Source: an uncultured Enterobacteriaceae bacterium
Lineage (GTDB): Bacteria; Desulfobacterota; Binatia; Bin18
Assembly (NCBI GenBank): GCA_964618735.1
Contig: CAZUFQ010000003.1
Coordinates: 1 to 29,796 of the forward strand
DNA: 29,796 nucleotides
Direction: 5' to 3'
A program made the translations under genes and the position numbers. Positions within the stretch are counted from its first letter, which is position 1. Each line of letters opens with the position of its first letter. Under the pieces are notes generated by a model that worked only from the letters and a program-made list of their open reading frames with translations, did no database searches and was not told where the DNA came from. Below, in pieces: positions 4,026-23,602 of the stretch.

Positions 4026-4041
4026 TGCAAAATCAATACCA
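4026..4041 (-). promoter_or_regulatory. Sigma-54 promoter for the YsnF-YsnF-cupin unit
   Basis: TGGTAT-TGATT-TTGCA, 31 bp upstream of the ATG at 3994. Confidence 0.72.
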
Positions 4042-4376
4042 TGCTCAATCCCCTCACCAGGTGGGCCACAGACTCTCTTTGACGAGTGAATCACTACAAC
4101 GAGCGAGATATTTTGCCGACATTTTTCTTCAGATTTTCTAGTAGGCTCTCTAGCAGGGCCCTAAGGAGTGGGCCCCGGTGCGCACTCAAACGGCCAAAAC
4201 AGTCTCAGGCGTCGTTGGCGCTCGTCAACGATCCTGCTCTAAGTAGAAGCGAAGATAGGAGAAAGTCTGAGACTCGGCCAACAAGGTTCACTAAAGCGAA
4301 GCTTATTCACAAATAGTGACTCTCTCAGTCAGGCGGATGCATGGGCCTGCCTGGTGAAGAGGGCTGCGCTCTATAT

Positions 4377-4392
4377 CGGCACGAGACTTGCA
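4377..4392 (+). promoter_or_regulatory. Sigma-54 promoter for the DUF4142 gene
   Basis: CGGCAC-GAGAC-TTGCA, 74 bp upstream of the ATG at 4467. Confidence 0.8.
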
Positions 4393-4466
4393 CTTTATGT
4401 AGAGATACTTTCTGAGGAGGGACATTGTATGAATGTTAATTCACATCCTAAAAAAGGAGCACAGCA

Positions 4467-5099
4467 ATGAATACTCGGTTTATCACTGGCCTGGTAGGCT
4501 TGGCAGGCGGTTTCTTGTTGCTGATCGGCAATACCTCCGCCTTTGCCGACGAAGCGAAGAATGATCCCATGGCCCAGTCTTTTCTGAAAGAAGCCGCACA
4601 AGGGGGCATGACGGAGGTCACCTTGGGACAAATGGCGGCGGAGAAAGGGCAGAATGAAGCTGTTAAGAACTTCGGCCTCCGTATGGTGAAAGACCACGGG
4701 CAAGCAAACGAGGAACTCAAGAACCTCGCTAAATCAGAAGGCGTGACTATACCGTCTGATATGGGAAGCGAGGGGAAAGAGCTACAACAACGCTTGCAGA
4801 AGCTCTCTGGCGCTGAGTTTGACCAGGCCTACATGCAAGAAATGCTGAAAGATCACAAAAAAGATATAGAAGCGTTTAACCAACAGGCCCAGAATGGGAA
4901 TGACCCAGAAGTAAAAAATTGGGCCGCGAAAACTCTGCCAACGTTGCGTGAACATTATCAGCTGGGGCAGACAGCAGCAGAAAAAATCGGTCTGAAGACC
5001 TCGGCTGCCGACTCGACTGATCGCCTCAGTTCGAGCAGTAAGAGCGATATGGAAAAAATGTCTCCTCCAGAACGGATGGGAGCAGCGCAATCGCGCTAA
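4467..5099 (+). CDS. Exported DUF4142 (ferritin-like) protein
   Basis: Signal peptide ending SAFA. FLKEAAQGGMTEVTLGQMA, VKNFGLRMVKDHGQAN, FDQAYMQEMLKDHKKDI, TLPTLREH. AAGGAG RBS. Confidence 0.92.
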   Translation: MNTRFITGLVGLAGGFLLLIGNTSAFADEAKNDPMAQSFLKEAAQGGMTEVTLGQMAAEKGQNEAVKNFGLRMVKDHGQANEELKNLAKSEGVTIPSDMGSEGKELQQRLQKLSGAEFDQAYMQEMLKDHKKDIEAFNQQAQNGNDPEVKNWAAKTLPTLREHYQLGQTAAEKIGLKTSAADSTDRLSSSSKSDMEKMSPPERMGAAQSR

Positions 5100-5125
5100 G
5101 AACAGCTTGAATCAAGTGTCGCGAG

Positions 5126-5163
5126 AGAGAAGAGGTCCCTCCTCACCTACCTCTTCTCTTTTT
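5126..5163 (+). terminator. Terminator-like hairpin between convergent genes
   Basis: AGAGAAGAGGT (5126-5136) and ACCTCTTCTCT (5149-5159) form a perfect 11-bp stem, followed by TTTT. Confidence 0.6.
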
Positions 5164-5942
5164 CAAGAGGCGGCTTTTTTCCTCCCCCGAGCCGCCTCTC
5201 CTTTTGTTTCTACAAGAGAAAATTCCGCTACTAGAGGAACGTGGTCGGAGGCAACAATAGCAAGCGGGCTTCTGTGCAGAGTCAATTGTTCAAGCTGCAA
5301 GGTAGGGTCAAAGTAAATATGGTCAAGATGAATAAGTGGGAGCACTCCTGGATACGTTCGTCTATGCCCAAGATGATAGCGGACATCAACACTTTCCAAG
5401 TGAGTAGCCAGTAAGCGTGACGGTAAACCCCGCACCCAGTCGTTGAAGTCGCCCAGCAACACTCGAGTGCCAGTTAGCGTTGTATCCCCAAGGATCCCTG
5501 AGCCAACCAGCTTCCGCGCCTGATGTCGTCGCTCGCCAAACGTCAAGCCTAGGTGCACATTAAAGACATGTAATAAATGGCCAGCGGGCCACTCGACATC
5601 AATGCGCAAACACGCGCGCCGTTCGTGTCGACGCCAGCTTAGGTCATAGTTGGTCGTAGAGCGAATAGGAGCCCGACTCAACACCACGTTGCCATACGAG
5701 GCGCCGCGCAAACGACGCGCTTCGCCAAGACAATAGTGATAAGATAATTTATCCGCGAAAAACTGCCCTTGGTTGAGTTCAGAAACGCCTCCTTCAAGAC
5801 AAATAACTTCCTGCAAGGCAATAATATCAGCGTTGAGTTCATGGAGGACTTTCACTATGCGAGCGGGATCGACTTGTCGATCAAGTCCACGACTCTTGTG
5901 AATGTTATAGGTGGCGACCCGGATACGCGGTAGTTTGCTCAT
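5163..5942 (-). CDS. Endonuclease/exonuclease/phosphatase family metal-dependent hydrolase (YbhP-like, 259 aa)
   Basis: VATYNIH, DIIALQEV, YGNVVLSR, VFNVHLGL, LLGDFND, LDHIY, ASDHVPL. The start is placed at MSKLPR; the RBS is weak. Confidence 0.9.
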   Translation of the reverse strand: MSKLPRIRVATYNIHKSRGLDRQVDPARIVKVLHELNADIIALQEVICLEGGVSELNQGQFFADKLSYHYCLGEARRLRGASYGNVVLSRAPIRSTTNYDLSWRRHERRACLRIDVEWPAGHLLHVFNVHLGLTFGERRHQARKLVGSGILGDTTLTGTRVLLGDFNDWVRGLPSRLLATHLESVDVRYHLGHRRTYPGVLPLIHLDHIYFDPTLQLEQLTLHRSPLAIVASDHVPLVAEFSLVETKGEAARGRKKAAS

Positions 5943-5962
5943 ACCTTTGCAAGACCCTGGTG

Positions 5963-6166
5963 CTATTGGAGAGCGTAAGAAACAGCAAACTGTGGGATGG
6001 CAGATAGACAAGAAAGAGCGGCTTGCGATACCCTCGCCCCTTGGGGGAGAGGGCCAGGGTGAGGGGAAAACCTACCTTCGGCGCCCTCTCCTGTTTCCTC
6101 TCCCCTCAAGGGAGAGGAGAAAACATCGACATTGTGTATCCACATCTTGGTGTGTTTTCCCTATAG
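5963..6166. mobile_element. MITE-like element, copy 2 (inverted relative to copy 1, no nested insert)
   Basis: Terminus 6146-6166 is identical to 915-935 (reverse complement). The REP pair lies at 6031-6066 and 6084-6120. The opposite terminus is degenerate, near CTATTG at 5963-5968. Confidence 0.7.
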
Positions 6167-6232
6167 GGGCGCTCACGTTCGCTGGGCAGATTCGAGCTGC
6201 AAATCTCGATCGTCATGGCGCTCGACTCTGTC

Positions 6233-7453
6233 TTACGCCGCCGCGGTAGAAGCTTTTATGCGTTCCCGCGTCAGAAATTCACGGAAACACGGCCAAAGGT
6301 ATTCTTTGCCTGCGATCACGACTGCCTTAAAATTGTCGGCCCAGAGTTCGCGGAAGAGCCCAATCATCGAACTCTCGTACGAGGAAAAGCCGGTCGGTTT
6401 AATTTCGCCATAGCCAAAGAGATTACACATAGCGCAGAGTTCCCGCGCAGCGGCCAGTGTGGCGGGATTATCCGAGGAAAAATTATCCCCATCCGAGCAA
6501 TGAAACGCATAGATATTCCACAGGCTGGGATGATAGCGATCACGAATAATCTCCAAGGCTTTATTGTACCCCGAGGAGATCAACGTGCCGCCAGACTCTC
6601 CTTTGTGAAAGAACTCCTCTTCAGTTACTTCTTTAGCTTCTGAGTGATGTGCAACAAAGACCAGCTCTACATGTTGATACTTTGTGGAGACAAACTGGTA
6701 GAGCAGAAAGAAAAAACTGCGGGCCAAGTATTTCTTCACCGTATCCATCGAGCCCGACGTATCCATAATGCAGATGACCGCCGCATTCGAGTCTGGTCGC
6801 ACATCCTCCGTAAAATGGCGGTAAATCATATCTCTTTTGTTAAATGGAAAACGCTCTTCCTCCTCCGTCAGCCTCGAAGCAGCGGGGTCTTCAGTAGCCT
6901 GGGACGCGGCGATTTTACGTTTGATGCGGGAGATCGCAGTTTGCCGTTTGTCTAGACGAATCCGTATGCCCGCTTTGCGATAGCCCTTGCGTTTATGCAG
7001 GCGTTCCGAGAGTACTTCGCGCAAAATTTTGCGCTCCATGTCGGGCAATTCTAAGTCCTCAAACATGATCTCGATGAGTTCCTCTAAGTTCACATCGGTC
7101 TCGTAGTAGTCGGCGCCGGCTTGATCTCCAGCTTGAGGCTGCCCTTGCCCTGGCCCTTGTTCTCCCCTTTTTCCGACCACTTGTCCTCGCTGCGCATTGC
7201 CATCGCCCTGCCCTACTCCTGGCGTATTTTCGCCGTAGATGAAGCGGTACTCTTTGATCCCTCGGATAGGAACTTTGACGATCTTGTCTTTGTCTTTCCC
7301 AATGATCGACTCCTCAGCAAGCAAATCTGCGATGTTGTTCCGAATGGACTCCCGCACCTTCTGCCGGTGTCGCTGGCGGTCTCCCGCGCTGCGGTCTGAG
7401 CGTAAGGAATCGGATGAAGAATATGGTCGAAAAATGGTTGCCGCGATGGCCAT
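6233..7453 (-). CDS. yeaH: YeaH/YhbH (DUF444) family vWA-like protein (406 aa)
   Basis: DRQRHRQKVRESI, KVPIRGIKEYRFIYG, FEDLELP, MDTSGSM, VFVAHHSEAKEVTEEEFF...ESGGT, NIYAFHCSDGDN. AAGGA RBS before MAIAAT; directly downstream of prkA. Confidence 0.93.
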   Translation of the reverse strand: MAIAATIFRPYSSSDSLRSDRSAGDRQRHRQKVRESIRNNIADLLAEESIIGKDKDKIVKVPIRGIKEYRFIYGENTPGVGQGDGNAQRGQVVGKRGEQGPGQGQPQAGDQAGADYYETDVNLEELIEIMFEDLELPDMERKILREVLSERLHKRKGYRKAGIRIRLDKRQTAISRIKRKIAASQATEDPAASRLTEEEERFPFNKRDMIYRHFTEDVRPDSNAAVICIMDTSGSMDTVKKYLARSFFFLLYQFVSTKYQHVELVFVAHHSEAKEVTEEEFFHKGESGGTLISSGYNKALEIIRDRYHPSLWNIYAFHCSDGDNFSSDNPATLAAARELCAMCNLFGYGEIKPTGFSSYESSMIGLFRELWADNFKAVVIAGKEYLWPCFREFLTRERIKASTAAA

Positions 7454-7514
7454 ACGTTTTTCCTTTAAAACGGATTTCAAAGGATCGAGAGGTGATAACC
7501 CTTCCCGAGAGAAA

Positions 7515-9446
7515 TTAATCCTTCCATAAGTTATTGGCGGCATACTTGAGCACCACGTCCACGCAGTACTCACAATATCCTTGCTCTAGCAGACTGCTCA
7601 CCATCGTGTGGTACTTACCGATCTGCTCTTCATCTCGCGTCCGCGCCTTGGTGATCACCCGGCTGATATCGCGCACCGAGTTCGTCAGTTTCTTCTCGAT
7701 CGCTTCTTTCAGAGGTTCATAGCTCTTGTATGTAATCGTTTGTGCACGTCGCGAGGCCGCCCACAAGTAAGCAATGACTTCTTGACGGAATCCATCAGCA
7801 GCTGAGCCGATAATAGCGATCTGCTCTTCTACGGACTTAAGAAAACCCTCATCCGGCTGCAGTTCCTCGCGGGTATTTCGGTCCTTCACTCTGGTCTTGT
7901 TGACAAACGCTTCGGCGTGATCCAAATAGTTCTGGAACAACGCGTCCGCCTGCGCTTGATAGGAGTACACAAAGGCTTTGGTGATTTCTTTCTCCAACAG
8001 CTCCAAGTAGTCTTTATGAATAGTATCTTGGAGAAACTCCAGGTACTGCTTACGCAGATCGTCGGTAATGTCTTGCTCCTTGACCATAGCAATAAGCGTC
8101 TCACGGACATTGATCGGATTGATGCAGCGGCCGGACTCCGCCAGAGCGTTATCAAGCGCCTTCATGATGAAGCGGGTCGAGACGCCGCTCAGCCCTTCCC
8201 GTTTAACGTCTTCGCGTAGTTCCTGGAGGTTGATCTTTTTCGTGCGGCCTTTCTCCACCACTTCTTCACCATTGTAGAGTCGCAATTTGGTGATCAGGTC
8301 ACACTTTGCGGTTGGCTCTAAGCGCGACAGTATGGCAAACATCGAAGCCATCTCCAGGGTATGCGGGGCCACGTGTGCACGGAAAGAGGACTTTTTCAAA
8401 ATCTTCTGGTAGATTTTTACCTCTTCGGACAGGCGTAGGTTATAAGGGACTTTGACGACAACGATACGGTCGAGAATAGCTTCGTTGGTATGGTCCGCTT
8501 TAAATTTTTGCCACTCCGCTTCATTGGAATGCGCCACGATCACTGAGTCCACATAGATCGTGCCGTGCCGTCCAGGCGCAGGAATGAACTTCTCCTGGGT
8601 GGCGGTAATCATCGCATGCAGATATTCAGTCTCATTTTTAAAGACTTCGATGAACTCCACCATGCCTCGGTTGCCCACGTTAAAGGCTCCGTTGAGCTCT
8701 AACACGCGCGGGTCGCCTTCAGAATATTTGTCAAGCTTGGAAATATCCTCGGAGCCGATCAACACCGAAGTATCTTGGTTATTGGGATCAACCGGCGGCA
8801 CCACGCCAATGCCTTTGCGGTTGCGTTTAGAGAAGGAGACAGTAACAATCGGCACATCTTCGTAGCGGGCCTGATACTCCTCCTTCAAACGGAAGCGGCA
8901 GGTGGGGCACAGATCTCCTTCGATATGGACGCCAAGCATCTGCTCGAACTCTTTGCGCAGGTGTCGAGGAATAAGATGCAACGGCTCCTCGAACATCGGG
9001 CACCCTTCGATAGCGTACACAGGGTCGGTTTCTTCCAACGCGCGCTGCAACTTTTCAACAAGTGAACTCTTGCCCGAGCCTACGGGCCCCATCAAGTAGA
9101 GCACTTGACGGCTTTCTTCCCCCTTCAATGAAGCGGAGTGAAAATAGCGACTAATCTGCGCAACGGTGCGCTCGATGCCAAAGAACTCGTCCTTGAAATA
9201 GTTATAAACTTTCAGATTGTCGTCTTTATAAAGCCGCTTGACGCGTGCATCATCAGACTGGGCAATATCGTACATTCCCTGGCCGAGAAGAAAGTCGTAC
9301 AGACGGGCATGGGCTAATTTAGGGATGCTGGGATCTTCTTTGATCTTTTCAAGATAGTCAAGCAACGTTCCCCGCCACTCTTTGTTCTCTCGGCTCGTGC
9401 GATCAGTTTGAATCACTTCAGCAAACGAAGTCTTCCCAATTTCCAT
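7515..9446 (-). CDS. prkA: PrkA/YeaG family AAA+ serine protein kinase/ATPase
   Basis: Walker A GPVGSGKS; GCPMFEEPL; GVVPPVDPNNQDTSVLIGS; GAFNVGNRGMVEFIEVFK; IVAHSNEAEW; EAILDRI. AAAGGAG RBS. Confidence 0.96.
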   Translation of the reverse strand: MEIGKTSFAEVIQTDRTSRENKEWRGTLLDYLEKIKEDPSIPKLAHARLYDFLLGQGMYDIAQSDDARVKRLYKDDNLKVYNYFKDEFFGIERTVAQISRYFHSASLKGEESRQVLYLMGPVGSGKSSLVEKLQRALEETDPVYAIEGCPMFEEPLHLIPRHLRKEFEQMLGVHIEGDLCPTCRFRLKEEYQARYEDVPIVTVSFSKRNRKGIGVVPPVDPNNQDTSVLIGSEDISKLDKYSEGDPRVLELNGAFNVGNRGMVEFIEVFKNETEYLHAMITATQEKFIPAPGRHGTIYVDSVIVAHSNEAEWQKFKADHTNEAILDRIVVVKVPYNLRLSEEVKIYQKILKKSSFRAHVAPHTLEMASMFAILSRLEPTAKCDLITKLRLYNGEEVVEKGRTKKINLQELREDVKREGLSGVSTRFIMKALDNALAESGRCINPINVRETLIAMVKEQDITDDLRKQYLEFLQDTIHKDYLELLEKEITKAFVYSYQAQADALFQNYLDHAEAFVNKTRVKDRNTREELQPDEGFLKSVEEQIAIIGSAADGFRQEVIAYLWAASRRAQTITYKSYEPLKEAIEKKLTNSVRDISRVITKARTRDEEQIGKYHTMVSSLLEQGYCEYCVDVVLKYAANNLWKD

Positions 9447-9539
9447 GAATTCTCCTTTTCGAGCGCTCTCTCAGTTATATATCTGGGGAGAATATCAACC
9501 CAAAAGAGGGAAGCGCGACGTGTTTCCACAGCAGACAGG

Positions 9540-9555
9540 AGCAATCCCTGTGCCA
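9540..9555 (-). promoter_or_regulatory. Sigma-54 promoter for prkA-yeaH
   Basis: Perfect TGGCAC-AGGGA-TTGCT, 93 bp upstream of the ATG at 9446. Confidence 0.85.
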
Positions 9556-9708
9556 GTAAAACTTCTTACTCTTGGAAAAAATCTACTGCGTTTCCGCTTC
9601 AGGTCGCTTAAGGCGTGAGTGTTTTTTCCTACAGTCTTACTGTAGGTTCATCTACACGGAACAGTTCGCTTCTCCCGAGATTTCTGCGCGGTCCATCTCT
9701 TTTCATGG

Positions 9709-9735
9709 GTAGGGGCAAGGTCGCCTCGTCCCTAC
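9709..9735. repeat. Degenerate GTAG-type REP palindrome
   Basis: GTAGGGGCAAGGTCGCCTCGTCCCTAC, similar to the perfect palindrome at 18813-18840. Confidence 0.55.
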
Positions 9736-9801
9736 CCCCGGCGTGCATATTCCTGGAAGCCAGAATTTAATTATGCATACCTCCGCTAAAGATAGACTTC
9801 G

Positions 9802-9817
9802 TGGCACAGGAGTTGCT
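9802..9817 (+). promoter_or_regulatory. Sigma-54 promoter for the DUF4383-DUF1080-like unit
   Basis: Perfect TGGCAC-AGGAG-TTGCT, 40 bp upstream of 9858. Confidence 0.85.
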
Positions 9818-9857: not shown

Positions 9858-10337
9858 ATGATTATGGGAATACGTTCTTTTGCTTCCCTAGCGGGGCTTG
9901 TCTACCTTGTGATAGGGATTTTCGGCTTTCTACCGGGCCTCACCCATGCTCCTCCAGCCGGGGCCCCGCATTTGGCGTTTGCGACGAATTACAGTTATCT
10001 CTTTGGCTTGTTTCCCGTTAACCTCCTCCACAATGTTTTTCACATTGCGATTGGATTGTGGGGCTTTCTAGCGTCAAGCAGTCTCGCGGCTTCGCGCACC
10101 TTTGCGCGCGGCGTAGCCCTTCTGTACGGCGTCTTGACGTTCATGGGTCTGTTCCCAGGGTTGAACACCGTGTTTGGCTTGCTTCCGTTATTCGGACATG
10201 ACGTCTGGATTCATGCAGGCACGGCGTTAGTCGCCGCTTACTTCGGCTTCGCCGCGGCCCTGGAAGTCACCCGGGTGCGCCGGGCCGGGGTAAAGAGTGA
10301 AAAAGTAAAAGTCTATGAAGACCGTCCACACGCTTAA
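9858..10337 (+). CDS. DUF4383 family membrane protein
   Basis: GLVYLVIGIFGF, LFGLFPVNLLHNVFHIAIGLWG, DVWIHAGTA; four hydrophobic segments. The start may be 9864. Confidence 0.85.
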   Translation: MIMGIRSFASLAGLVYLVIGIFGFLPGLTHAPPAGAPHLAFATNYSYLFGLFPVNLLHNVFHIAIGLWGFLASSSLAASRTFARGVALLYGVLTFMGLFPGLNTVFGLLPLFGHDVWIHAGTALVAAYFGFAAALEVTRVRRAGVKSEKVKVYEDRPHA

Positions 10338-12263: not shown

Positions 12264-12279
12264 AGCAATCCATATGCCG
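12264..12279 (-). promoter_or_regulatory. Sigma-54 promoter for the YihY gene
   Basis: CGGCAT-ATGGA-TTGCT, 65 bp upstream of the ATG at 12198. Confidence 0.78.
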
Positions 12280-12457: not shown

Positions 12458-12473
12458 CGGAATGAAATTTGCT
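12458..12473 (+). promoter_or_regulatory. Probable sigma-54 promoter for the 12630 gene
   Basis: CGGAAT-GAAAT-TTGCT has correct GG/GC spacing and lies 156 bp upstream of the ATG. Confidence 0.55.
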
Positions 12474-13586: not shown

Positions 13587-13918
13587 AGCACTCTTCGTGA
13601 GATACGGCGAGCACCGCGTCATACTTGTCTCTTGCCTGTCTATTGTGGTTGCTTCTAATAGTAAATTTTCTGGCGCCGTAGAAGAAAACGTCGCGCCGTG
13701 CGCAAGAGCGGACTCCGTCCAACCTCGTCCACTCCACTGCGAACCAGACGAAGTCGCTCAAGCTGAGGAAAGACGCCCGTTGAGAGTACGCTCAGCGTCT
13801 CAACGAACCTAACAAGGCGGCCCCAGCGTGAGCGCATCTTTTCCCGGCGTTTTCATTCAGGAAAGCATGTTGTGAGACGAACGAACAAACTTACCAACGT
13901 GTGTGAGAGGAGGATGAG

Positions 13919-15133: not shown

Positions 15134-15146
15134 GCGGAGGTTCATC

Positions 15147-17312
15147 GTGATTGCTGAACAGATACGCCCTGAGGAAGAATACTACCTGCTTGCATCAGCT
15201 TCCGCACAGCGTCGCCCCCAGGTCTTACTGAATCACGACGAGAGTTTTGCCATCTTTGACCTTGCTGGAGATATCCCGCTCGCCCGCCGTGAGGCGCACG
15301 GACTCTTTCACTGTGGTACGCGGTTTCTCTCTCGCTACGAGCTCCGCCTGAACGAGCAACTCCCTTTCTTATTGAGCACGAGCACAACATCTGGGGGAAG
15401 CCAACTCGTCACGTATCTCTCCAACGCGGACGAAATACGTTCTTCACAGCTTGTGATGCCTCGGGACACCGTGGCGGTGCGCCGCGAGAAGATCCTCTTT
15501 GCCGGCGCGCTGTATGAGGATATCTTCCTGCAGAACTTTGCCGCAGAGCAAGTCTCTCTGACGCCGACGCTTCTGTATGGGGCGGACTTCGCCGATATTT
15601 TTGAGCTGCGCGGCAGTCAGCGCGCTCAGTGCGGCAAGATCTTAGAGCCGCGTCTTCAGCCCGACCGGCTCACCTTTGCTTACCGGGGCTTAGACGACGT
15701 AGAACGCGAGACGGTGCTGTCGTTCCGCCCCACTCCCTCGCTCCTCACCTCCGACAAAGTGAATTTTTTGTTAACATTAGCTCCAGGTGAAGAGACGAGA
15801 TTGAGCATTACTATTGCGTGTCAGCTGAGTTCCGCCCCCTCTCAGCCCACCTCGAGCCTGGGGTCGGCTCTTACCACGCTCACTACCAAGCGCGAGAGAT
15901 GGTGGGCGCAATTTCCTCAGGTGTCCACCACTCATGAAGGCTTCAACGCCTGGATGAATCGCTCACTTCATGACCTTGCGCTGCTGCACGTCGAGACGCC
16001 CCAGGGAGCGTATGTCTCCGCTGGGATCCCCTGGTTTGCCACGCTCTTCGGCCGCGACAGCTTGATTACTGCATTAGAGACGCTGGCGTTTTTTCCTGGT
16101 CTGGCGGCGGAGGTGTTACGCATGCTCGCGAGTCTGCAGGGCCAAGAAAACGCAAGTGAACGAGATGAAGAGCCAGGGAAGATTTTGCATGAGCGGCGCC
16201 ATGGAGAAATGGCCGCGACCGGCGAGATCCCTTTTGGCCGTTATTACGGCAGCATTGACGCTACGCCGCTCTTTCTACTGCTGCTGGCGGAGTATGCCGA
16301 ACGCACCGCCGATCTTGTTTTGGTGCGGGAGCTCTGGCCAGCGGCGCTGGCCGCGATATGCTGGTTGGAGACGGCAAGCAACGAAAAAGGCTATCTTGTG
16401 TATGCGCGACGCACCACGCGTGGATTGATCAATCAGGGGTGGAAAGATTCACACGATGCGGTGATGCATGCAGATGGCGCGCTGGCGGAGCCGCCTATCG
16501 CGCTGGCGGAAGTGCAAGCCTATGTGTATGCTGCGCGCCGTCGCCTGGCTCATCTCGCCCGTCGTCTCGGCGAAGATGCGAGGGCGGAGGCTTGGGACGC
16601 GGAGGCAAGTCGCCTGCAGGAACATTTTCAACACGATTTTTGGCTTCCCGAAGAACACACGTTTGCCCTAGCCCTCGACGCGTACGGTAACCCCTGTCGT
16701 GTCGTGAGTTCAAACGCCGGGCACTGTCTCTACAGCCAGATCGCTACCGAGGCCCAAGCGCGTCAAATCATTGAGCGCTTCTTACAAGACGATATGTTCT
16801 GCGGGTGGGGAATTCGCACCCTCTCGTCGCAGGCGCGCCGCTACAATCCCATGAGTTATCATAACGGTTCAGTGTGGCCGCATGACAACGCGATTATTGC
16901 CGCTGGTTTCTCTCGGTATAATAGGATGGATCAGGCTGAACGCATTTTCTCCGCTCTCTTTAATGCGAGCGCCTACGGCGCTGATCATCGGCTGCCGGAA
17001 CTGTTCTGTGGGTTTCCCCAACAGGGACAACAGGGTCCAGTACCGTATCCGGTCGCGTGCAAACCACAAGCCTGGGCTGCGGGCAGTCTCTTTCTACTCT
17101 TGCAGGCAGTCTTGGGGCTGCATATTGATGCGTGGACACGGCGCGTGACCCTAGGCCGAGTGGTACTGCCAGCATGGCTCAACGAGCTCATAATTCGTGG
17201 GCTGCGAGTCTGTGACGCTCGGGTAGACCTACGAATTGTGCAGGGTCGTGCGAGTGCGGCAGTGGAAGTGTTAGAGAAGCAGGGCGACGTGGAGATCGTC
17301 GTACACGAGTAA
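15147..17312 (+). CDS. Amylo-alpha-1,6-glucosidase / glycogen debranching enzyme family protein
   Basis: AGIPWFATLFGRDSLI, EEPGKILHE, YYGSIDATPLF, NQGWKDS, YNPMSYHNGSVWPHDN, RLPELFCGF, ACKPQAWAAGS. GTG start with GGAGG RBS. Confidence 0.93.
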   Translation: MIAEQIRPEEEYYLLASASAQRRPQVLLNHDESFAIFDLAGDIPLARREAHGLFHCGTRFLSRYELRLNEQLPFLLSTSTTSGGSQLVTYLSNADEIRSSQLVMPRDTVAVRREKILFAGALYEDIFLQNFAAEQVSLTPTLLYGADFADIFELRGSQRAQCGKILEPRLQPDRLTFAYRGLDDVERETVLSFRPTPSLLTSDKVNFLLTLAPGEETRLSITIACQLSSAPSQPTSSLGSALTTLTTKRERWWAQFPQVSTTHEGFNAWMNRSLHDLALLHVETPQGAYVSAGIPWFATLFGRDSLITALETLAFFPGLAAEVLRMLASLQGQENASERDEEPGKILHERRHGEMAATGEIPFGRYYGSIDATPLFLLLLAEYAERTADLVLVRELWPAALAAICWLETASNEKGYLVYARRTTRGLINQGWKDSHDAVMHADGALAEPPIALAEVQAYVYAARRRLAHLARRLGEDARAEAWDAEASRLQEHFQHDFWLPEEHTFALALDAYGNPCRVVSSNAGHCLYSQIATEAQARQIIERFLQDDMFCGWGIRTLSSQARRYNPMSYHNGSVWPHDNAIIAAGFSRYNRMDQAERIFSALFNASAYGADHRLPELFCGFPQQGQQGPVPYPVACKPQAWAAGSLFLLLQAVLGLHIDAWTRRVTLGRVVLPAWLNELIIRGLRVCDARVDLRIVQGRASAAVEVLEKQGDVEIVVHE

Positions 17313-17342: not shown

Positions 17343-17616
17343 ACCCCAAAAGGGAGCTCACGCTCCTTGAAACACCAGAACATAGAGGAGCTGAGTCTGG
17401 GGCGCTAGGCTTCGTTTGCTGAGCGCTACGATTCATCGTCGCGAGCAAGCGGTGCTAGAATTTTGTCAGGCATCCTCTTCCAACTCTCAACCACGATCCG
17501 GAATAAAAATTGCTGAAAAGTAAAGAAAAAGGGTTTCCTCTTTCTCTGGCTTCGCGCCAAGCTGCTTGGGACTCTGCAGCGCCGGCGTCAGTATAGAGAA
17601 AGGCGGGAGGGGAATT

Positions 17617-17973
17617 ATGCAGCATTTTATTACTTCTTGGCAATGGAGCGGATTGAGCAGAGAGAGATTGCTGACTTTGCTTACGGTGTTGCTGAGCGTA
17701 AGTCTACTAGCGTGCCAGTCGCCAGTGTGGTCTCCCACGGCGACGAGCATCCCTATACAGAGAACAGCTCTCTCTGAGCAGCCAGCAGAAAAGGGATTTT
17801 TTGTGCAGGCGGTTGTCCGTGGCATTGATGCTCGCACCGGCTTAATAGACCTAGACACCGAAGCCGGCCCTTTCTACGTAGTCGCGTCGGAAATTGATCT
17901 CGCGAAGCTCCATAAGGGGGATAAGATTGTCGTATACCTTCTCACCGATGACGCCCCAGTCCTACGTTTATAA
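17617..17973 (+). CDS. Hypothetical small lipoprotein (118 aa), beta-rich
   Basis: GGGAGG RBS; hydrophobic stretch ending in the lipobox LLAC; C-terminal VRGIDARTGLIDLDT...LHKGDKIVV pattern suggestive of an OB-like barrel. Confidence 0.65.
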   Translation: MQHFITSWQWSGLSRERLLTLLTVLLSVSLLACQSPVWSPTATSIPIQRTALSEQPAEKGFFVQAVVRGIDARTGLIDLDTEAGPFYVVASEIDLAKLHKGDKIVVYLLTDDAPVLRL

Positions 17974-18153: not shown

Positions 18154-18693
18154 ATGAACACAACACAGCATTCTACGGATGAGATTCGTGAAGCCATCGA
18201 GCAAGGGTCGGTAACTGCAGAGTATCGTGCGGACCCACATAAATTGCTTCAGGAGTTAAATCAACTGCGAGCGACGGAGGTTGCGAGCTATCTACAATAT
18301 AAACAACATGCTTACATGGCGGTTTCCCTCTTCGCTCCTGGCCTCAAACCAGACTTTCAAGCTCACGCCAATATAGAGTTACAGCATGCTGATATGCTGG
18401 CCCAACGTATCCAACAACTGGGCGGGGTCCCGGTGTTTGATCTGTCTGAAATGGCTACGCAAGCGGCGCAAAAGGGAGTGCAGTCTGAGCAAGGAGCGAC
18501 TCTGACTGATATGATTATTGAGAATCTTTTGCTGGAACGGCGTCAAATTATGGCGTACACCGCGCTCATTCGGCAAACAGGAGATACCGACCCTACCACG
18601 CGTCGACTGTTGGAAGATATTTTGTCTACCACCGAACAGCATGCGAGCGAGTTAGCCGATTACCTGAAGCGCAGCGCTGAGACTCGCTCATAA
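18154..18693 (+). CDS. Ferritin-like (DPS-like/bacterioferritin-related) protein
   Basis: GSVTAEYRAD, LRATEVASYLQYKQH, ELQHADMLAQRIQQLGGVP, DPTTRRLLEDIL. AGGAGG RBS. Confidence 0.88.
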   Translation: MNTTQHSTDEIREAIEQGSVTAEYRADPHKLLQELNQLRATEVASYLQYKQHAYMAVSLFAPGLKPDFQAHANIELQHADMLAQRIQQLGGVPVFDLSEMATQAAQKGVQSEQGATLTDMIIENLLLERRQIMAYTALIRQTGDTDPTTRRLLEDILSTTEQHASELADYLKRSAETRS

Positions 18694-18852: not shown

Positions 18853-20436
18853 TTAAAGTTGCTCTTCGATCGGCAAGAGCAAAAGAGAATTGAGGATGAG
18901 ACAACGCCACCAAGAGACATGAGGCTCGCTGGTGAAATGCACGATCTTCCCTTGTTCCGTCGCCGCCCACAATAGATCTCCGTCGCGGTCAAGCTCTACA
19001 TGGTAGGCATTACTTGGCTGCATTCCTTCTTCAATAAAGCGTGCAACCTCGGCGGCAAGTGCGGGGCTCTCGACGACAATCGACAACTCCGTGTTGAGGT
19101 AGATCGAGCGGGGATCCAGATTAAAGGAACCGAGCAAAACGGTGCGCCGGTCAACCATGGCAGCCTTGGTGTGAAGAGCAGCCGTAGACTTGCCTCTAAG
19201 CCACGTCCACTCTCTATTGATAAACCCTGCCAAAGGCTGCATCTCAAAAAGTTCTACGCCACAGCGTAGCAATTTCTTACGATACTTGGCGTACCCGGCA
19301 TGAACAATGGCGACATCGGTTGAGGCGCACGAGTTGGTCAAGATACGAACGCGGACACCACAAGCAGTAAGATCGCGAAGAAATTTCACTCCTCTATGGC
19401 CAGGGATGAGGTAGGCCATTTCGAGCAACAGCTCTTGATGCAACGTATCCCTAATCCTTTTCCGCAGTTCCGCTAAGACGCTCGACTCAGAAGTCTCGAG
19501 TTTATCCGGACGGTCGGCAATCACGGTTGCCGTGCCCCAGATGAGCCGCGAAGCCATGCCTTGGGCAACGGTAGTGAAACTCTCAAGATCGAGTTCTAAC
19601 TTAAAAGGCAGAGCCGCGTAGCTCACGACAGTAGGGTCGAGCTCGGCGACTAGGTGACGGAATTGCTCTGACGTCGATTGATCACCTACCACGGCCTCTA
19701 CCGGGAAGGCCCAGGTGCTGTTCCAAAACATATCAAAGCTCTTAGAAACCTCAGGCACGATCGGGCCGCCCACGAAAAGATCAAGGTCGCGGTAATTCGA
19801 TTGTTCATGGACCGAGAAGTAGTTATCACCAATGTTACGTCCGCCCACAATCGCCACCGTGTTATCTATAATGAAGGCCTTATTATGCATGCGGTGAGTG
19901 ATGTGAGCAGAATCGAAGAGGGTGTCCCAGAGGCGGACCGAGCGGTTGCCGAAAGGGTTATACAGTCGCACCTGGATATTAGGGTGCCCCGAGGTGAGGG
20001 CCAAAATATGGTCCTCACCTCCAGTATGCATGTCGTCGAGGAGCAGGCGCACCCGCACGCCCCGGTCTGCCGCTTTAATGAGCGCGTAGAGGAGAATGCG
20101 CCCGGTTACATCTTCTTCCCAGAGGTAGTATTGGGCGTCTATCGTTTTCTCTGCAAGCGTCGCAAAGGCGTAACGGATTCTAAAGGCCTCCCATCCAGCA
20201 GCAACTATAGCGAACCCGGAGGCGCCCGCGTGCTTCTCAGCGTACGCCCCGAAGAGCCGTCCTAAGAAAGTTGCTTCGGGCTCCGCGAGTGCGTACGAAA
20301 CTTCGTGCTCGCCTACTTGAACAGAGGAGAGAGTTCTCCTCCAAGCGCTTCGCAAAAGTGCGACAAGCACACTGACAAATAGGAATAAAACGATGAGAAC
20401 AAAACAGGTCAAAATCCACGACATCAATGAAACCAT
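18853..20436 (-). CDS. Phospholipase D family protein, cardiolipin synthase ClsC/YmdC-like
   Basis: Two HKD motifs (RMHNKAFIID, LHTKAAMVD), IDAQYYLW, VRVRLLLDDM, VGGRNIGDNYF, GSFNLDPRSIYLNTE. N-terminal membrane anchor; the exact start is uncertain. Confidence 0.9.
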   Translation of the reverse strand: MVSLMSWILTCFVLIVLFLFVSVLVALLRSAWRRTLSSVQVGEHEVSYALAEPEATFLGRLFGAYAEKHAGASGFAIVAAGWEAFRIRYAFATLAEKTIDAQYYLWEEDVTGRILLYALIKAADRGVRVRLLLDDMHTGGEDHILALTSGHPNIQVRLYNPFGNRSVRLWDTLFDSAHITHRMHNKAFIIDNTVAIVGGRNIGDNYFSVHEQSNYRDLDLFVGGPIVPEVSKSFDMFWNSTWAFPVEAVVGDQSTSEQFRHLVAELDPTVVSYAALPFKLELDLESFTTVAQGMASRLIWGTATVIADRPDKLETSESSVLAELRKRIRDTLHQELLLEMAYLIPGHRGVKFLRDLTACGVRVRILTNSCASTDVAIVHAGYAKYRKKLLRCGVELFEMQPLAGFINREWTWLRGKSTAALHTKAAMVDRRTVLLGSFNLDPRSIYLNTELSIVVESPALAAEVARFIEEGMQPSNAYHVELDRDGDLLWAATEQGKIVHFTSEPHVSWWRCLILNSLLLLPIEEQL

Positions 20437-20548: not shown

Positions 20549-20564
20549 GGGCAAAAGTATTGCG
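20549..20564 (+). promoter_or_regulatory. Weak sigma-54-like site upstream of the DUF5132 gene
   Basis: GGGCAA-AAGTA-TTGCG has correct GG/GC spacing and lies 70 bp upstream of the ATG. Confidence 0.4.
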
Positions 20565-20634: not shown

Positions 20635-20889
20635 ATGAGCCTACAACTTGGACTAGGCGTTTTAGTCGGACTAGGAATTGCGAAAGCGAAAGCTGAACTC
20701 CTGCCCCAAGTCGGTGAGTCCCTTCGTCCTGTTGCAAAAGCCCTTATTCACTCTGGATTCACCTTTGTTAATAATGTACAAGAATTAGCGGCTGAGGGAA
20801 TGGAACACTTGAACGACCTGGTGGCTGAAGTGCAATACGAGCGATCCGCCGCCACCCCGGCTCAAGACGACCCCCCAAAGGCCGCATAG
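20635..20889 (+). CDS. DUF5132-like small membrane-anchored protein
   Basis: GLGVLVGLG...LRPVAKALIHSG...AEGMEHLNDLVAEV. AAGGAG RBS. Confidence 0.75.
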   Translation: MSLQLGLGVLVGLGIAKAKAELLPQVGESLRPVAKALIHSGFTFVNNVQELAAEGMEHLNDLVAEVQYERSAATPAQDDPPKAA

Positions 20890-20892: not shown

Positions 20893-21089
20893 TCAGCAAA
20901 AGCTTGCGGGCAGCCTTGTCCTTCGGGGCGACCCTCCCGATTGTTTCGCCCAGACGAGTCCTTTGATCAATGGCCGCACCATAGCGCCCATGGGGGAAGA
21001 AGGATGGGAGCCACGATAACAGCGACTAACCCTATAAGACCCGTAGTTCCCCCTCCCCCTTCTGTAACAAGGTCTTCCCATATCGCCAT
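20893..21089 (-). pseudogene. Frameshifted DUF5132-like copy
   Basis: AAAGGAG RBS and ATG at 21089 give MAIWEDLVTEGGGGTTGLIGLVAVIVAPILLP. The family-like continuation MGAMVRPLIKGL lies in another frame after a C5 run (20992-20996 on the + strand). Confidence 0.65.
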
Positions 21090-21135
21090 AGGCTACTCCT
21101 TTCAGCGTTAACTGCTCAGCATTAACTGCTTTTCA

Positions 21136-21151
21136 CGCAAAAGGCGTACCA
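21136..21151 (-). promoter_or_regulatory. Sigma-54 promoter for the frameshifted DUF5132-like gene
   Basis: TGGTAC-GCCTT-TTGCG, 46 bp upstream of the ATG at 21089. Confidence 0.65.
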
Positions 21152-21266
21152 CTCTAGAGTAAGGAATTCGCTACACGCCTGTAGAGGTTTTTCTCTCTCT
21201 TTCCTCCCCTGCCGGCTGCTCTTCATATAACGAGCACTGATTCTTCCTTTTCTTCCGTACACGCTC

Positions 21267-21282
21267 TGGCGTCCTTCTTGCT
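21267..21282 (+). promoter_or_regulatory. Sigma-54 promoter for the CAP-domain gene
   Basis: TGGCGT-CCTTC-TTGCT, 38 bp upstream of the ATG at 21321. Confidence 0.72.
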
Positions 21283-21320
21283 CCCTACTCCACAAAATCA
21301 AATGTAATCGGTATGGATGT

Positions 21321-21848
21321 ATGAGGGTAACCGGTATTCTGGTGCTAATCGTCGTGAACGCCGTCATAGGAGCGGGCCCCGCGCCCCTCTCTCTTGCGCA
21401 AATATATAATAAGTCAACAATGGTCGAAGATGACGCCCTCTCAACGCGGCTTCTTGTCTTGCATAATCAGGAGCGGTCTCAGGCTGGCCTCTCTCCTTTA
21501 AAAGACAATCCCATCTTGAGAGAAGCCGCTCGTGAACATGCTCAAGACATGGCGGCTCAACAACAGTTGACTCATGAAGGAAGCGACGGCTCTACTCCCA
21601 GCCAACGCGTCGAACGGCGCGGCTATCACTATTCGCGCTTTGGCGAGAATGTCGCCGCTGGCCAACAAAGCGCGCAGGAGGTAATGCAAAGCTGGTTGCA
21701 GAGTTCATCGCATCGGCAAAATATTCTTGGCGACTTTAATGAAATGGGGGCCGCCCGCGCGCTCGATGCACACGGGCTACCATATTGGTGTGTAGTGTTT
21801 GGTAGTCCCTTACAAGTCAGATCCTCTTCTACGCCCGCGCACCAGTGA
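21321..21848 (+). CDS. Exported CAP (SCP/YkwD-like) domain protein
   Basis: Signal peptide; HNQERSQAGL, AAREHAQDMA, HEGSDGS, GENVAAGQ, WLQSSSHRQNIL, YWCVVFG. Confidence 0.92.
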   Translation: MRVTGILVLIVVNAVIGAGPAPLSLAQIYNKSTMVEDDALSTRLLVLHNQERSQAGLSPLKDNPILREAAREHAQDMAAQQQLTHEGSDGSTPSQRVERRGYHYSRFGENVAAGQQSAQEVMQSWLQSSSHRQNILGDFNEMGAARALDAHGLPYWCVVFGSPLQVRSSSTPAHQ

Positions 21849-21898
21849 GCTGGCGCCCAAGACAGCTGAGAATTGCTCGGGTTGCATGAGTCCTTACT

Positions 21899-22477
21899 TT
21901 ACCGGGAGCCTGGTGAGGAGCCTAACGTTCCTGGGGCTCCTGACATGCCAAGATTATTGTTAGAAGAACCATAGGGAGAGCTTCCAAAATTTCCCGGAGT
22001 TCCAGAATAGTTAGAACCAGGAGAGCCTAACCTTCCCGGCGCATTCAGAGAGCCAGAATTAGTGCTTCGATTACTATAAAAAGAACTCTCAGGCGTCATT
22101 GCGGTATTAGGACTTCCATAATCAGGGCTTCCGTAATTCGGACTTCTATAATCAGGACTTGCAAGAGGCCCGGTTGGATTAGACAAGGTAGACCCCGGAG
22201 CACCTAAGGTTCCCGGGCTGCCTAAGGCTCCCGGGCTGCCTAAGGCTCCCGGGCTGCCTAAGGAGTTGGGGGCGCCATAGTTGGGAAAAGATCCGAGAGA
22301 ACCGGGACTTCCCGGCGCTGTGCCGCCCCCTGAAAGTCCATTGGAGGGGGGCGGCCCGCCGAATCCTCCGGCCATTCCGTTCGGCGCGTTTCCTTGCGCT
22401 AAAACACATGGCACGGGCGCAGCAGCAAAAAGACCAGTCATAAAGACTGCCGCCCAATACGATTTTACATTGTACAT
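21899..22477 (-). CDS. Secreted Gly/Ser/Pro/Asn-rich low-complexity protein (192 aa)
   Basis: AAAGGAG RBS before MYNVKSY; signal peptide ending CVLAQ; mature region made of GSPG/GAPG and SP(D/N)YG repeats. Confidence 0.75.
   Translation of the reverse strand: MYNVKSYWAAVFMTGLFAAAPVPCVLAQGNAPNGMAGGFGGPPPSNGLSGGGTAPGSPGSLGSFPNYGAPNSLGSPGALGSPGALGSPGTLGAPGSTLSNPTGPLASPDYRSPNYGSPDYGSPNTAMTPESSFYSNRSTNSGSLNAPGRLGSPGSNYSGTPGNFGSSPYGSSNNNLGMSGAPGTLGSSPGSR
22203..22263 (-). repeat. 18-bp tandem repeat encoding (LGSPG[A/T]) units
   Basis: CCTAAGG(T/C)TCCCGGGCTG three times plus a partial fourth copy on the + strand. Confidence 0.9.
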
Positions 22478-22533
22478 AATAATCTCCTTTCTCAGGACGT
22501 AGCATACAATTGTCAGCTTTTTCTCTACGGAAG

Positions 22534-22549
22534 AGCAAAAGCTGGACCA
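22534..22549 (-). promoter_or_regulatory. Probable sigma-54 promoter for the Gly/Ser/Pro-rich gene
   Basis: TGGTCC-AGCTT-TTGCT, 56 bp upstream of the ATG at 22477. Confidence 0.6.
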
Positions 22550-22595
22550 TGACCACATGCTTCTGTCACAGCTTTACACATGGGCCCGTTTATCC

Positions 22596-22611
22596 TGGTA
22601 TATTCTTTGCT
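22596..22611 (+). promoter_or_regulatory. Sigma-54 promoter for the His-rich peptide-rhodanese unit
   Basis: TGGTAT-ATTCT-TTGCT, 67 bp upstream of the ATG at 22679. Confidence 0.72.
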
Positions 22612-22678
22612 CTTTTATAATTCTTGTCTTCGTCATGTTACGAGGACGCAAAAAATCCAGCGAAGAAAGGAACTGTGT

Positions 22679-22954
22679 ATGATGTCTCGTCTCAGTCGTT
22701 TATTGCTGATCATTGTCCCGTTCCTGGGAATACTTTTTTCTGCTCCTATTGCTTCCGCTTGGTATCCTCATCATCAGGGGCATTATTGGCGGCATCATCA
22801 TCGTTATCATCACTATTGGCGGCGCCACGCCTACCGGCCCCCCTACTATTATGATCGCGACTGGTACGCCTATCGTCGGCCTGATAGATACGAGCGCTAC
22901 AGCAGAGTCGATCCTTACTATTATTACGGGTACAGAGGACATCGGGATGACTAA
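22679..22954 (+). CDS. Secreted His/Tyr/Arg-rich small protein (91 aa)
   Basis: AAAGGA RBS; signal peptide ending ASA; mature WYPHHQGHYWRHHHRYHHYWRRHAYRPPYYY...GHRDD. Confidence 0.75.
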   Translation: MMSRLSRLLLIIVPFLGILFSAPIASAWYPHHQGHYWRHHHRYHHYWRRHAYRPPYYYDRDWYAYRRPDRYERYSRVDPYYYYGYRGHRDD

Positions 22955-22967
22955 CACCCGCGAGCCC

Positions 22968-23001
22968 CGAGAGGAACACAAAACCGCGCGTGTTCCTCTC
23001 G
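22968..23001 (+). other. Intercistronic stem-loop
   Basis: CGAGAGGAACAC and GTGTTCCTCTCG form a perfect 12-bp stem with a 10-nt loop. There is no U-tract, so it is more likely a stability/processing element than a terminator. Confidence 0.55.
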
Positions 23002-23029
23002 ACCCTTACGCTTTGATGAAGGACGAGGG

Positions 23030-23332
23030 ATGGCTGTGCCAAATCTAGTTGATAGAGTACAGGTGCAAAAGCTTCTCGACGAACGAGCACAGCTTATCGA
23101 AGTGCTCCCTGCTAAGGAGTATGAAAAAGAACATCTTCCTAAGGCGAGAAATATACCCCTTGCGCGTCTCACCCAGCAGACCACGGCAGTGCTTCAACGA
23201 AATCAACCGCTCATCGTCTACTGTTATGACGCCCAGTGAGACCTGAGCGCCCGGGCCGCGGGTCGGCTCGAGACGTATGGTTTTACTCAGGTCTTTCGCT
23301 ACCTCTTAGGCAAAGCAGTTTCATCTTTGTAG
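23030..23332 (+). CDS. Rhodanese-like protein, probable selenoprotein (UGA at 23237-23239 read as Sec70; CxxxxU)
   Basis: LIEVLPAKEYEKEHLPKARNIPL...PLIVYCYDAQ-[TGA]-DLSARAAGRLETYGFTQVFRYLLGKAVSSL-TAG. The sequence after the UGA supplies the S..AA..L...GF..V..L.GG-type C-terminal half of the rhodanese fold. Confidence 0.75.
23245..23269 (+). promoter_or_regulatory. Candidate bacterial SECIS hairpin
   Basis: Folded by hand: GAGC(23245-48)/GCTC(23266-69), a G-C pair, a bulged U, CCCG/CGGG, and apical loop GGCCG starting 15 nt after the UGA. Confidence 0.55.
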
Positions 23333-23586
23333 GGGCCACGCGGAAAACTGGGATCACATGCCGTGAGAAAGGCGAACGATAAAATGTAAGGAAAAAGCTA
23401 CACCTTTGTCGAGAAAGCAGAGACGGCTACGGATTCGTTGGAGAAAAAGAAATTTCTGTATCAGGTAGTGACTCATCGATTAGCCGGCAAGCAATCTTTG
23501 CAGCGCGCCCACAGCGGCGAACGCCGCGATAAATTTTTCGGACAATTTACAAGCAAGGAATTTCCCTTCCAAGAGCGCTCTATTTC

Positions 23587-23602
23587 TGGCACTGCTCTTG
23601 CT
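23587..23602 (+). promoter_or_regulatory. Sigma-54 promoter for DUF748-xfp-ackA-PLD
   Basis: Perfect TGGCAC-TGCTC-TTGCT, 30 bp upstream of the ATG at 23633. This also shows that the ORF-track start at 23438 is too far upstream. Confidence 0.85.

Follow-up and report, generated by a model that had tools for sequence, protein, structure and literature searches.

The DNA analysed here is a 29.8-kb stretch of contig CAZUFQ010000003.1 from an uncultured soil bacterium (the whole stretch is called the window hereafter), whose nearest named homologues in protein searches belong to Binatia, Tectomicrobia and Methylomirabilota. Genes were annotated from Pfam and NCBIfam profile matches on the open reading frames (ORFs) of the window. 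The subject of this report is a series of sites resembling the -24/-12 promoters of sigma-54 (RpoN), which precede units encoding YsnF/YflT-like proteins, DUF4142, PrkA-YeaH, DUF4383, BrkB, a CAP-domain protein, two secreted low-complexity proteins, and DUF748 together with phosphoketolase and acetate kinase (Table 1). An earlier note on this DNA, made from the letters alone, had listed twelve such sites, all of which are present at the positions and on the strands that it gave. Judged by motif, spacing and conservation, nine or ten of them are very probably genuine sigma-54 promoters heading short stress, dormancy and envelope units.

Table 1. Predicted promoters, conserved block, operons and genes of the window. 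Strict match, agreement with YGGYAY-N5-TTGCW; GC, the -12 GC dinucleotide; aa, amino acids.
Feature	Position	Strand	Remarks
Predicted sigma-54 promoter TGGTATTGATTTTGCA	4026..4041	-	DUF2382 / YflT-DUF2382 / cupin operon; GC 33 nt from ATG 3994; strict match; 5.8 bits
Predicted sigma-54 promoter CGGCACGAGACTTGCA	4377..4392	+	DUF4142 gene; strict match; 10.2 bits
Predicted sigma-54 promoter TGGCACAGGGATTGCT	9540..9555	-	prkA-yeaH; GC 95 nt from ATG 9446; 11/11 consensus positions; 17.0 bits, strong
Predicted sigma-54 promoter TGGCACAGGAGTTGCT	9802..9817	+	DUF4383 and 3-keto-disaccharide-hydrolase-like gene; 11/11 positions; 18.2 bits, strong
Predicted sigma-54 promoter CGGCATATGGATTGCT	12264..12279	-	BrkB/YihY membrane protein; strict match; 14.9 bits, strong
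Weak candidate CGGAATGAAATTTGCT	12458..12473	+	158 nt 5' of 318-aa YflT-like ORF; 7.2 bits; low confidence
Weak candidate CGGAATAAAAATTGCT	17499..17514	+	5' of 118-aa lipoprotein-like ORF (ATG 17617); 9.7 bits; absent from the earlier list
Doubtful candidate GGGCAAAAGTATTGCG	20549..20564	+	5' of DUF5132 gene; 2.8 bits
Probable sigma-54 promoter TGGTACGCCTTTTGCG	21136..21151	-	40-aa membrane-peptide ORF (ATG 21089); 9/11 positions; correct geometry; 6.5 bits; moderate
Predicted sigma-54 promoter TGGCGTCCTTCTTGCT	21267..21282	+	secreted CAP-domain protein; GC 40 nt from ATG 21321; 16.3 bits, strong
Predicted sigma-54 promoter TGGTCCAGCTTTTGCT	22534..22549	-	Gly/Ser/Pro-rich 192-aa protein (ATG 22477); 13.0 bits, strong
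Predicted sigma-54 promoter TGGTATATTCTTTGCT	22596..22611	+	His/Tyr/Arg-rich 91-aa protein (ATG 22679); strict match; 19.7 bits, strong
Predicted sigma-54 promoter TGGCACTGCTCTTGCT	23587..23602	+	DUF748(AsmA-like)-xfp-ackA (ATG 23633); 11/11 positions; 23.8 bits, strong
Conserved non-coding block	9556..9685	.	between prkA and DUF4383 promoters; palindrome CCTACAGTCTTACTGTAGG (9626-9644) and T-tract
Target operon DUF2382 / YflT-DUF2382 / cupin	1390..3994	-	Pfam
Target operon prkA-yeaH, without spoVR	6233..9446	-	Pfam
Target operon DUF748 / phosphoketolase / acetate kinase	23633..28964	+	Pfam
GH15 fragment	38-913	+	
Cupin (166 aa)	1390-1890	-	Pfam
YflT-DUF2382 (552 aa)	1941-3599	-	Pfam
DUF2382, YsnF-like (130 aa)	3602-3994	-	Pfam
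DUF4142	4467-5099	+	
Endonuclease/exonuclease/phosphatase family (EEP)	5163-6011	-	
YeaH/DUF444 (446 aa)	6233-7573	-	Pfam
PrkA (643 aa)	7515-9446	-	Pfam
DUF4383	9858-10337	+	
3-keto-disaccharide-hydrolase-like	10368-11096	+	
BrkB/YihY family membrane protein	11080-12198	-	
318-aa YflT-like protein	12630-13586	+	
GT4 and glycogen-debranching-like enzyme	13919-17312	+	
118-aa lipoprotein-like ORF	17617-17973	+	
Dps	18154-18693	+	
PLD-family protein	18853-20436	-	
DUF5132	20635-20889	+	
40-aa membrane peptide	ATG at 21089	-	
CAP-domain protein, secreted	21321-21848	+	
Gly/Ser/Pro-rich secreted protein (192 aa)	21899-22477	-	true ATG 22477
His/Tyr/Arg-rich secreted peptide (91 aa)	22679-22954	+	
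Rhodanese fragment	23030-23239	+	
DUF748 (AsmA-like)	23633-25300	+	Pfam
Phosphoketolase (xfp)	25363-27729	+	Pfam
Acetate kinase (ackA)	27708-28964	+	Pfam
Second PLD-like ORF	~29010-29796	+	HHQKFVVID motif; partial at right end

The strict pattern YGGYAY-N5-TTGCW occurs seven times in the window (4026-, 4377+, 9540-, 9802+, 12264-, 22596+ and 23587+), against 0.22 +/- 0.42 occurrences expected from dinucleotide-preserving shuffles; both the seven matches and the chance estimate of about 0.2 in the earlier note were thereby reproduced. All seven lie in intergenic DNA and face a start codon at 32-95 nt. The earlier note had proposed comparing this density with that of coding and shuffled sequence, and the strict pattern proved to be absent from the coding DNA of the window, while shuffles gave the 0.22 just quoted. 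When up to two mismatches to TGGCAC-N5-TTGCW were allowed, 23 matches were found versus 14 expected: 13 fall in coding DNA, which is the background level, and 10 in the roughly 14% of the window that is intergenic, every one of these facing a gene. As a control, 1.54 Mb of unrelated bacterial prkA loci held only 10 strict matches, that is, 0.065 per 10 kb versus 2.35 per 10 kb in the window, a 36-fold difference. A weight matrix trained on the sites of relatives only, with none from the window, found seven places in the window that reach 14 bits, one of which lies within coding sequence, versus 0.33 in shuffles, and at 13 bits or more it recovered seven of the sites of the window. Matches to sigma-70-like promoters were not enriched in the window (13 versus 12.5 expected).

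The geometry of the sites is likewise that of sigma-54 promoters. The GG-N10-GC core lies within the consensus in the seven strict matches and in three further sites that agree at 9/11 positions, and the -12 GC stands 32-104 nt from a likely start codon that is preceded by a Shine-Dalgarno sequence, the exception being 12458 (158 nt). Transcription would be expected to begin about 11-13 nt beyond each GC, the predicted starts being 4015, 4403, 9529, 9828, 12253, 21125, 21293, 22523, 22622 and 23613. Two -24 sub-types, TGGCAC and CGGAAT, occur among the sites, whose density is about one per 2 kb. The earlier count of eleven to twelve promoters is slightly too high: nine or ten sites are credible, 12458 is weak and 20549 doubtful. 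Many of the sites form divergent pairs, as the note had reported, with -24 elements spaced from 335 bp down to 46 bp, the tightest pairs being those of 46 and 115 bp. Divergent pairs are also found in relatives (L082 7767/7882, L087 12614/12813 and L088 722/1002).

Conservation in related genomes, which the earlier note had suggested as a check, was compared for ten sites (4026, 4377, 9540, 9802, 12264, 12458, 17499, 22534, 22596 and 23587) on contigs reached by protein searches with DUF4383 and DUF748; all but 12458 are kept. The ENA contig L082 is syntenic with the window, its proteins being about 78-95% identical, and it keeps the sites upstream of DUF2382 (at 873(-), with one spacer change), DUF4142 (1244(+)), DUF4383 (3904(+)) and BrkB (7767(-)), as well as the one on the prkA side. 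For 4026 and 4377, it is the strict pattern together with this conservation that makes them credible. Both sites of the pair 9540/9802 persist in L083 (9802 at 1265(+)), and 9540 also has a near-identical counterpart, downstream CTGTCTGC included, in the Binatia-labelled L094 (4599(-)). A BrkB homologue in L086 carries CGGCACCTTCTTTGCT at 13680(-). The weak site 12458 is not kept upstream of the L082 orthologue of its gene; L082 has a better site in place of this weak partner. The weak candidate 17499, almost the same in sequence as 12458, has a counterpart in L082 at 11208.

The right-hand part of the window is informative as well. The pair 22534/22596 and the site 23587 are kept in L091, and in L092 the Gly/Ser/Pro-rich gene is missing together with precisely its own promoter, 22534, while the neighbouring 22596 is retained; this implies that each -24/-12 element tracks its own gene. 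Site 23587 precedes DUF748 in L086, L087, L088-L091 and L094, where the orthologues show 74-92% identity and the flanks diverge, and at 74% protein identity the promoter persists in surrounding sequence that can no longer be aligned. In the window spoVR, as a rule the third gene of prkA-yeaH-spoVR, is gone, with a repeat element in its place (6012-6232); L094 retains it (1-948), and in L082 prkA and yeaH are gone, leaving a 153-aa SpoVR remnant (2951-3412) behind the conserved promoter. Of 80 GTDB prkA loci, only 9 have a good site in the 600 nt that precede prkA, which implies that the arrangement is confined to a sub-lineage. These 80 loci were not retained as an ortholog set, PrkA being too conserved (best 86% identical), the taxon labels mixed and the motif mostly absent; they served as a background control only.

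Promoters of this type stay silent until an ATPase activator fires. If the sites act as proposed, sigma-54 RNA polymerase would be parked on them as a closed complex, and firing would occur only upon ATP hydrolysis by an AAA+ enhancer-binding activator. The window itself encodes no such protein, as the earlier note had observed: none of its ORFs matches the sigma-54-interaction domain PF00158, and the truncated ORF on the right-hand edge resembles the PLD family. This supports the earlier proposal that the activator is encoded outside the window. The likeliest activators would be at least one NtrC-family response regulator encoded elsewhere, resembling an autoregulated kinase/activator module of relatives, and we infer that this genome encodes RpoN, to which the GAFTGA-bearing activators of relatives lend indirect support, and that such an activator responds to a triggering signal.

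This module was found in two more distant relatives: L086, whose DUF748 is 74% identical, and L094 (GCA_036000905.1, with the label Candidatus Binatia), whose PrkA is 86% identical. It comprises three genes, for a hybrid REC-PAS-HATPase protein, a PAS-HisKA kinase and a REC / AAA+ / HTH_8 regulator (L086 7526-8887; L094 10001-11362). In these relatives the profile matches and the translation show that the regulator carries Walker A and GAFTGA motifs; its best NCBIfam similarities are AtoC, NtrC and ZraR, and as it falls below every equivalog cut-off it is orthologous to none of the named systems. The L094 module is flanked by prkA-yeaH-spoVR on one side and by the PRC-barrel, DUF748 and BrkB genes on the other, and TGGCAC-N5-TTGC sites precede prkA, the hybrid kinase gene, the regulator gene itself, the PRC-barrel gene and DUF748. 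Palindromes of the form TGTCCC-N6-GGGACA, usually in tandem about 31 bp apart, precede the promoters of the module itself and, in L094, that of prkA, and they are clear in L094 and L086 only there; the same palindromes surround paralogous modules in L097, L098 and L103, over a background of 0.25 per 10 kb. The regulator gene itself bears both a sigma-54 promoter and tandem palindromes, and the module is probably autoregulated. The module therefore indicates that sigma-54 works with classical enhancer-binding activators in the wider lineage, and it is physically linked to orthologues of window genes. Homologues of the activator are numerous (8000 at E below 1e-30), and its paralogues lie in differing contexts, near envelope genes in L098/L103 and metabolic genes in L100. 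Among the 73-74% homologues, the search for the activator orthologue of the window's own lineage returned only paralogues or proteins of other lineages.

Three further observations concern this module. The 73%-identical activator paralogue of L098/L103 lies in another stress/envelope island, which has sigma-54 sites along with the palindromic enhancers just described and contains Gly-zipper, OmpA, DUF4398, Ysc84, MlaC, PRC-barrel and BON genes and an extracytoplasmic function (ECF) sigma/anti-sigma pair. The promoter of the hybrid REC-PAS-HATPase gene stands about 370 nt upstream of the called start (L086 4916-5299; L094 7805-8192), and this gap could represent a long leader that has been conserved, or else contain a small ORF missed in annotation. 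In L086, a 34-bp tandem direct repeat, tcgatgtcacttaa[c/t]gtgtagattcgcttcttag, is present in two copies (8930-9000) downstream of the activator gene.

The idea, put forward in the earlier note, that back-to-back promoters share enhancers found no support. No intergenic region of the window has a TGTCCC-N6-GGGACA site with 9/12 or more arm positions, no exact k-mer is common to three or more inter-promoter regions, inverted-repeat half-sites yielded only palindromes private to one region, and spaced dyads in these regions did no better than shuffles. Gibbs sampling of the inter-promoter regions reached an information content of 10.7, versus 9.3-9.8 in shuffles. The only enriched hexamer between the window promoters, CTACAC (Bonferroni P about 0.001), was rejected as an enhancer, being neither conserved in L082 or L091 nor enriched upstream of the promoters of relatives. 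Also discarded were GGMAAAAWMWCTCRC, derived from two promoters and not enriched, and GTCTTACT, which occurs at chance level. In the pair 22534/22596 the -24 elements are 46 bp apart, too close for an enhancer between them. At the prkA/DUF4383 pair, a three-way alignment shows high conservation from 9448 to 9685 that collapses from 9686 to 9790, and the non-coding block within it may serve these two promoters as an enhancer or as a DNA-bending region.

Several results weigh against our interpretation of the sites as sigma-54 promoters. Neither rpoN nor an activator was seen in the accessible DNA (the 29.8-kb window and short identical Logan contigs), no enhancer motif was found in the window, and most GTDB prkA loci, including many labelled Binatia, have no site upstream of prkA. 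In addition, 4026, 12458, 20549 and 21136 score poorly with the independent matrix, and the promoter calls were made from sequence alone.

How such promoters would be controlled can be read in more than one way. It is quite possible, although we stop short of calling it probable, that they are real sigma-54 promoters belonging to several activator regulons and that their clustering reflects an island of accessory stress and envelope genes. The failure to find a common enhancer, the two -24 sub-types and the size of the activator family, with its paralogues in differing contexts, speak for such a mixture; however, the same gene families repeatedly carry this promoter type across relatives, close to one activator module. 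The full model of the earlier note, one general-stress regulon with a single master activator and one enhancer common to each divergent pair, is plausible from the gene content, but we consider it rather unlikely. A coherent stress, dormancy and envelope gene content speaks for a single regulon, as do the position of the L094 module amid prkA, PRC-barrel, DUF748 and BrkB genes, each with a sigma-54 site, the conserved block between the prkA and DUF4383 promoters, and the recurrence of divergent pairs in L082, L087 and L088. However, no inter-promoter motif rises above shuffled controls, the palindrome of relatives is absent from the window and restricted in L094 and L086 to the module promoters and prkA, 46 bp is too short for an enhancer in the pair 22534/22596, and no sigma-54 site was found upstream of Dps, the operon of GT4 and the glycogen-debranching-like enzyme, or the PLD gene of the same island.

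Activators that engage promoter-bound holoenzyme from solution have been described, FlgR and CtcC among them. Activation here by a protein that lacks, or does not use, a DNA-binding domain would account for very tight pairs (46 and 115 bp between -24 elements) and for the lack of a detected enhancer in the window, yet a motif missed in eight short regions is weak evidence for absence, and the only activators seen in the lineage have HTH_8 and clear tandem palindromes, which makes this route improbable. That the motif is something other than a sigma-54 promoter (the operator of another protein, a sigma-70-family or ECF promoter, or a chance or repeat-borne sequence) is very improbable, for although it was called from the letters of the DNA and 22596 overlaps a weak sigma-70-like match, its GG and GC one helical turn apart are a sigma-54 hallmark, unlike the 16-18 nt -35/-10 spacer, its consensus equals the canonical TGGCAC-N5-TTGCW, it is asymmetric and always gene-facing, chance is excluded by the count of seven versus 0.22, and its unrelated flanks show that it is not a repeat.

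In Proteobacteria, prkA/yeaG has already been shown to be under sigma-54 control. In Escherichia coli, yeaGH is activated by NtrC with sigma-54, as shown experimentally (PMC4664914) and as stated in the earlier note; prkA-yeaH-spoVR of Rhizobium etli is RpoN1-dependent and not NtrC-activated (PMC3188799), and prkA/yeaG also belongs to the NtrC regulon of Burkholderia cenocepacia (PMC5491218). Expression of the E. coli and R. etli operons rises on starvation or growth arrest (PMC4664914, PMC3188799). The window resembles both in placing the PrkA/YeaG kinase and DUF444 in an operon behind a -24/-12 promoter. In contrast to them, its prkA is one of about ten adjacent sigma-54 units, spoVR is absent and no NtrC-type upstream activating sequence was recognised. 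The novelty lies in the genes involved, which in an uncultured lineage link YsnF/YflT-type stress proteins and several DUF families to PrkA; the mechanism is ordinary, and it is the density and the gene set that are unusual. Our literature search found no paper linking Binatia with sigma-54.

The nif cluster of Klebsiella, under NifA and sigma-54, spans about 20-25 kb, with many sigma-54 promoters and divergent pairs serving one physiological programme; its promoters share the recognisable enhancer TGT-N10-ACA of NifA, whose gene lies within the cluster. The promoter density of the window is comparable, but no common enhancer or activator was detected in the window cluster, and its genes concern stress and the envelope and not nitrogen fixation. 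General stress regulons are commonly governed by sigma-B (YsnF, YflT and Dps of Bacillus subtilis), sigma-S (E. coli) or EcfG/PhyR (Alphaproteobacteria, with PRC-barrel proteins), all sigma-70-family factors under partner switching or proteolysis. The window shares YflT, DUF2382/YsnF and PrkA with these regulons, and relatives add PRC-barrel and DUF2795 proteins, but its promoters are of the sigma-54 type, which requires an ATPase activator. Its general-stress content (YflT, DUF2382, PrkA/YeaH and a Dps neighbour) is also qualified by the fact that Dps, the most typical stress gene of the window, is not sigma-54-linked and that many targets are uncharacterised envelope or secreted proteins. 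The module of relatives resembles ZraSR, AtoSC and NtrBC in pairing a PAS-HisKA kinase with a REC / AAA+ / HTH_8 regulator behind a sigma-54 promoter and tandem palindromic enhancers, and differs from them in its extra hybrid REC-PAS-HATPase gene, its scores below every equivalog cut-off and its absence from the window.

Sigma-54 has been called the "controller of the bacterial exterior" (Francke et al. 2011, PMC3162934), in a survey that stresses polysaccharide, lipid, flagella and peptidoglycan biosynthesis and to whose theme YsnF/YflT/PrkA-type proteins do not belong. Many targets in the window fit that view, as they are membrane, periplasmic or secreted proteins (BrkB, DUF4383, the DUF748/AsmA-like protein, DUF4142, the CAP-domain protein and the two signal-peptide proteins), and so do the OmpA, Gly-zipper and MlaC neighbourhoods among the targets of relatives. 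The AsmA-like DUF748 protein suggests the presence of an outer membrane, and on this ground, together with the nearest named homologues, an assignment to Chloroflexi/Ktedonobacteria was rejected.

We tentatively suggest, as one possible and still doubtful extension, that in a sub-lineage of uncultured soil bacteria (NCBI label Candidatus Binatia) the general stress and dormancy programme, comprising YsnF/YflT-type, PrkA-YeaH, PRC-barrel and DUF2795 proteins as well as the remodelling of the envelope, passed from the control of a sigma-70-family stress sigma factor to that of sigma-54, with all-or-none switching by a dedicated, positively autoregulated phosphorelay (hybrid REC-PAS kinase, PAS kinase and NtrC-type activator). 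Stress and dormancy genes wired in this manner would switch tightly and signal-specifically, whereas sigma-70-family stress sigma factors compete in a graded manner, and confirmation genome-wide would reveal a distinct way to organise a stress response. More partner genes would then join the widespread, poorly understood PrkA-YeaH(-SpoVR) system under its known sigma-54 control, and the uncharacterised families DUF2382, DUF4142, DUF4383, DUF748 and BrkB would become candidates for a functional link to PrkA. With promoters so sharply defined, predicting a regulon for this uncultured lineage is straightforward.

The remaining observations concern sequence features and proteins of the window. An Rfam scan of the window and three relatives gave no matches, and no sigma-54 site lies upstream of the second PLD-like ORF (29010-29796). 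An element resembling miniature inverted-repeat transposable elements or repetitive extragenic palindromes (GGGGAGAGGGCCAGGGTGAGGGG core) is present in two inverted copies, 915-1169 and 6019-6166, which flank the 4.85-kb cupin-to-EEP segment holding the promoter pair 4026/4377. Downstream of 4377, a 13-codon upstream ORF, MNVNSHPKKGAQQ, at 4430-4471 has its own Shine-Dalgarno sequence and a stop codon overlapping the DUF4142 start (ATGA at 4467); it is partly conserved in L082 and may serve for translational coupling or as a leader peptide. The YflT-DUF2382 gene contains a 273-nt internal tandem duplication (1963-2523). The 318-aa ORF has the same C-terminal repeat, as detected by tblastn, and a YflT-like N-terminus, and is therefore probably a stress protein of the YflT-DUF2382 family.

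The pair 22534/22596 is predicted to drive two signal-peptide proteins of extreme composition, neither of which belongs to a known family according to the Pfam/NCBIfam annotation; the Gly/Ser/Pro-rich one has 18-nt tandem repeats (PGxLGS) at 22194-22263. Finally, a 28-bp motif, GTAAGGAAnnnGCTACACnnnTGTnGAG, occurs twice (0 expected), at 21159-21186 and 23386-23413, near the promoters 21136/21267 and 23587. Its minus strand resembles a weak sigma-70-like promoter, and it is kept in L091 with two changes and at another distance from the promoter.

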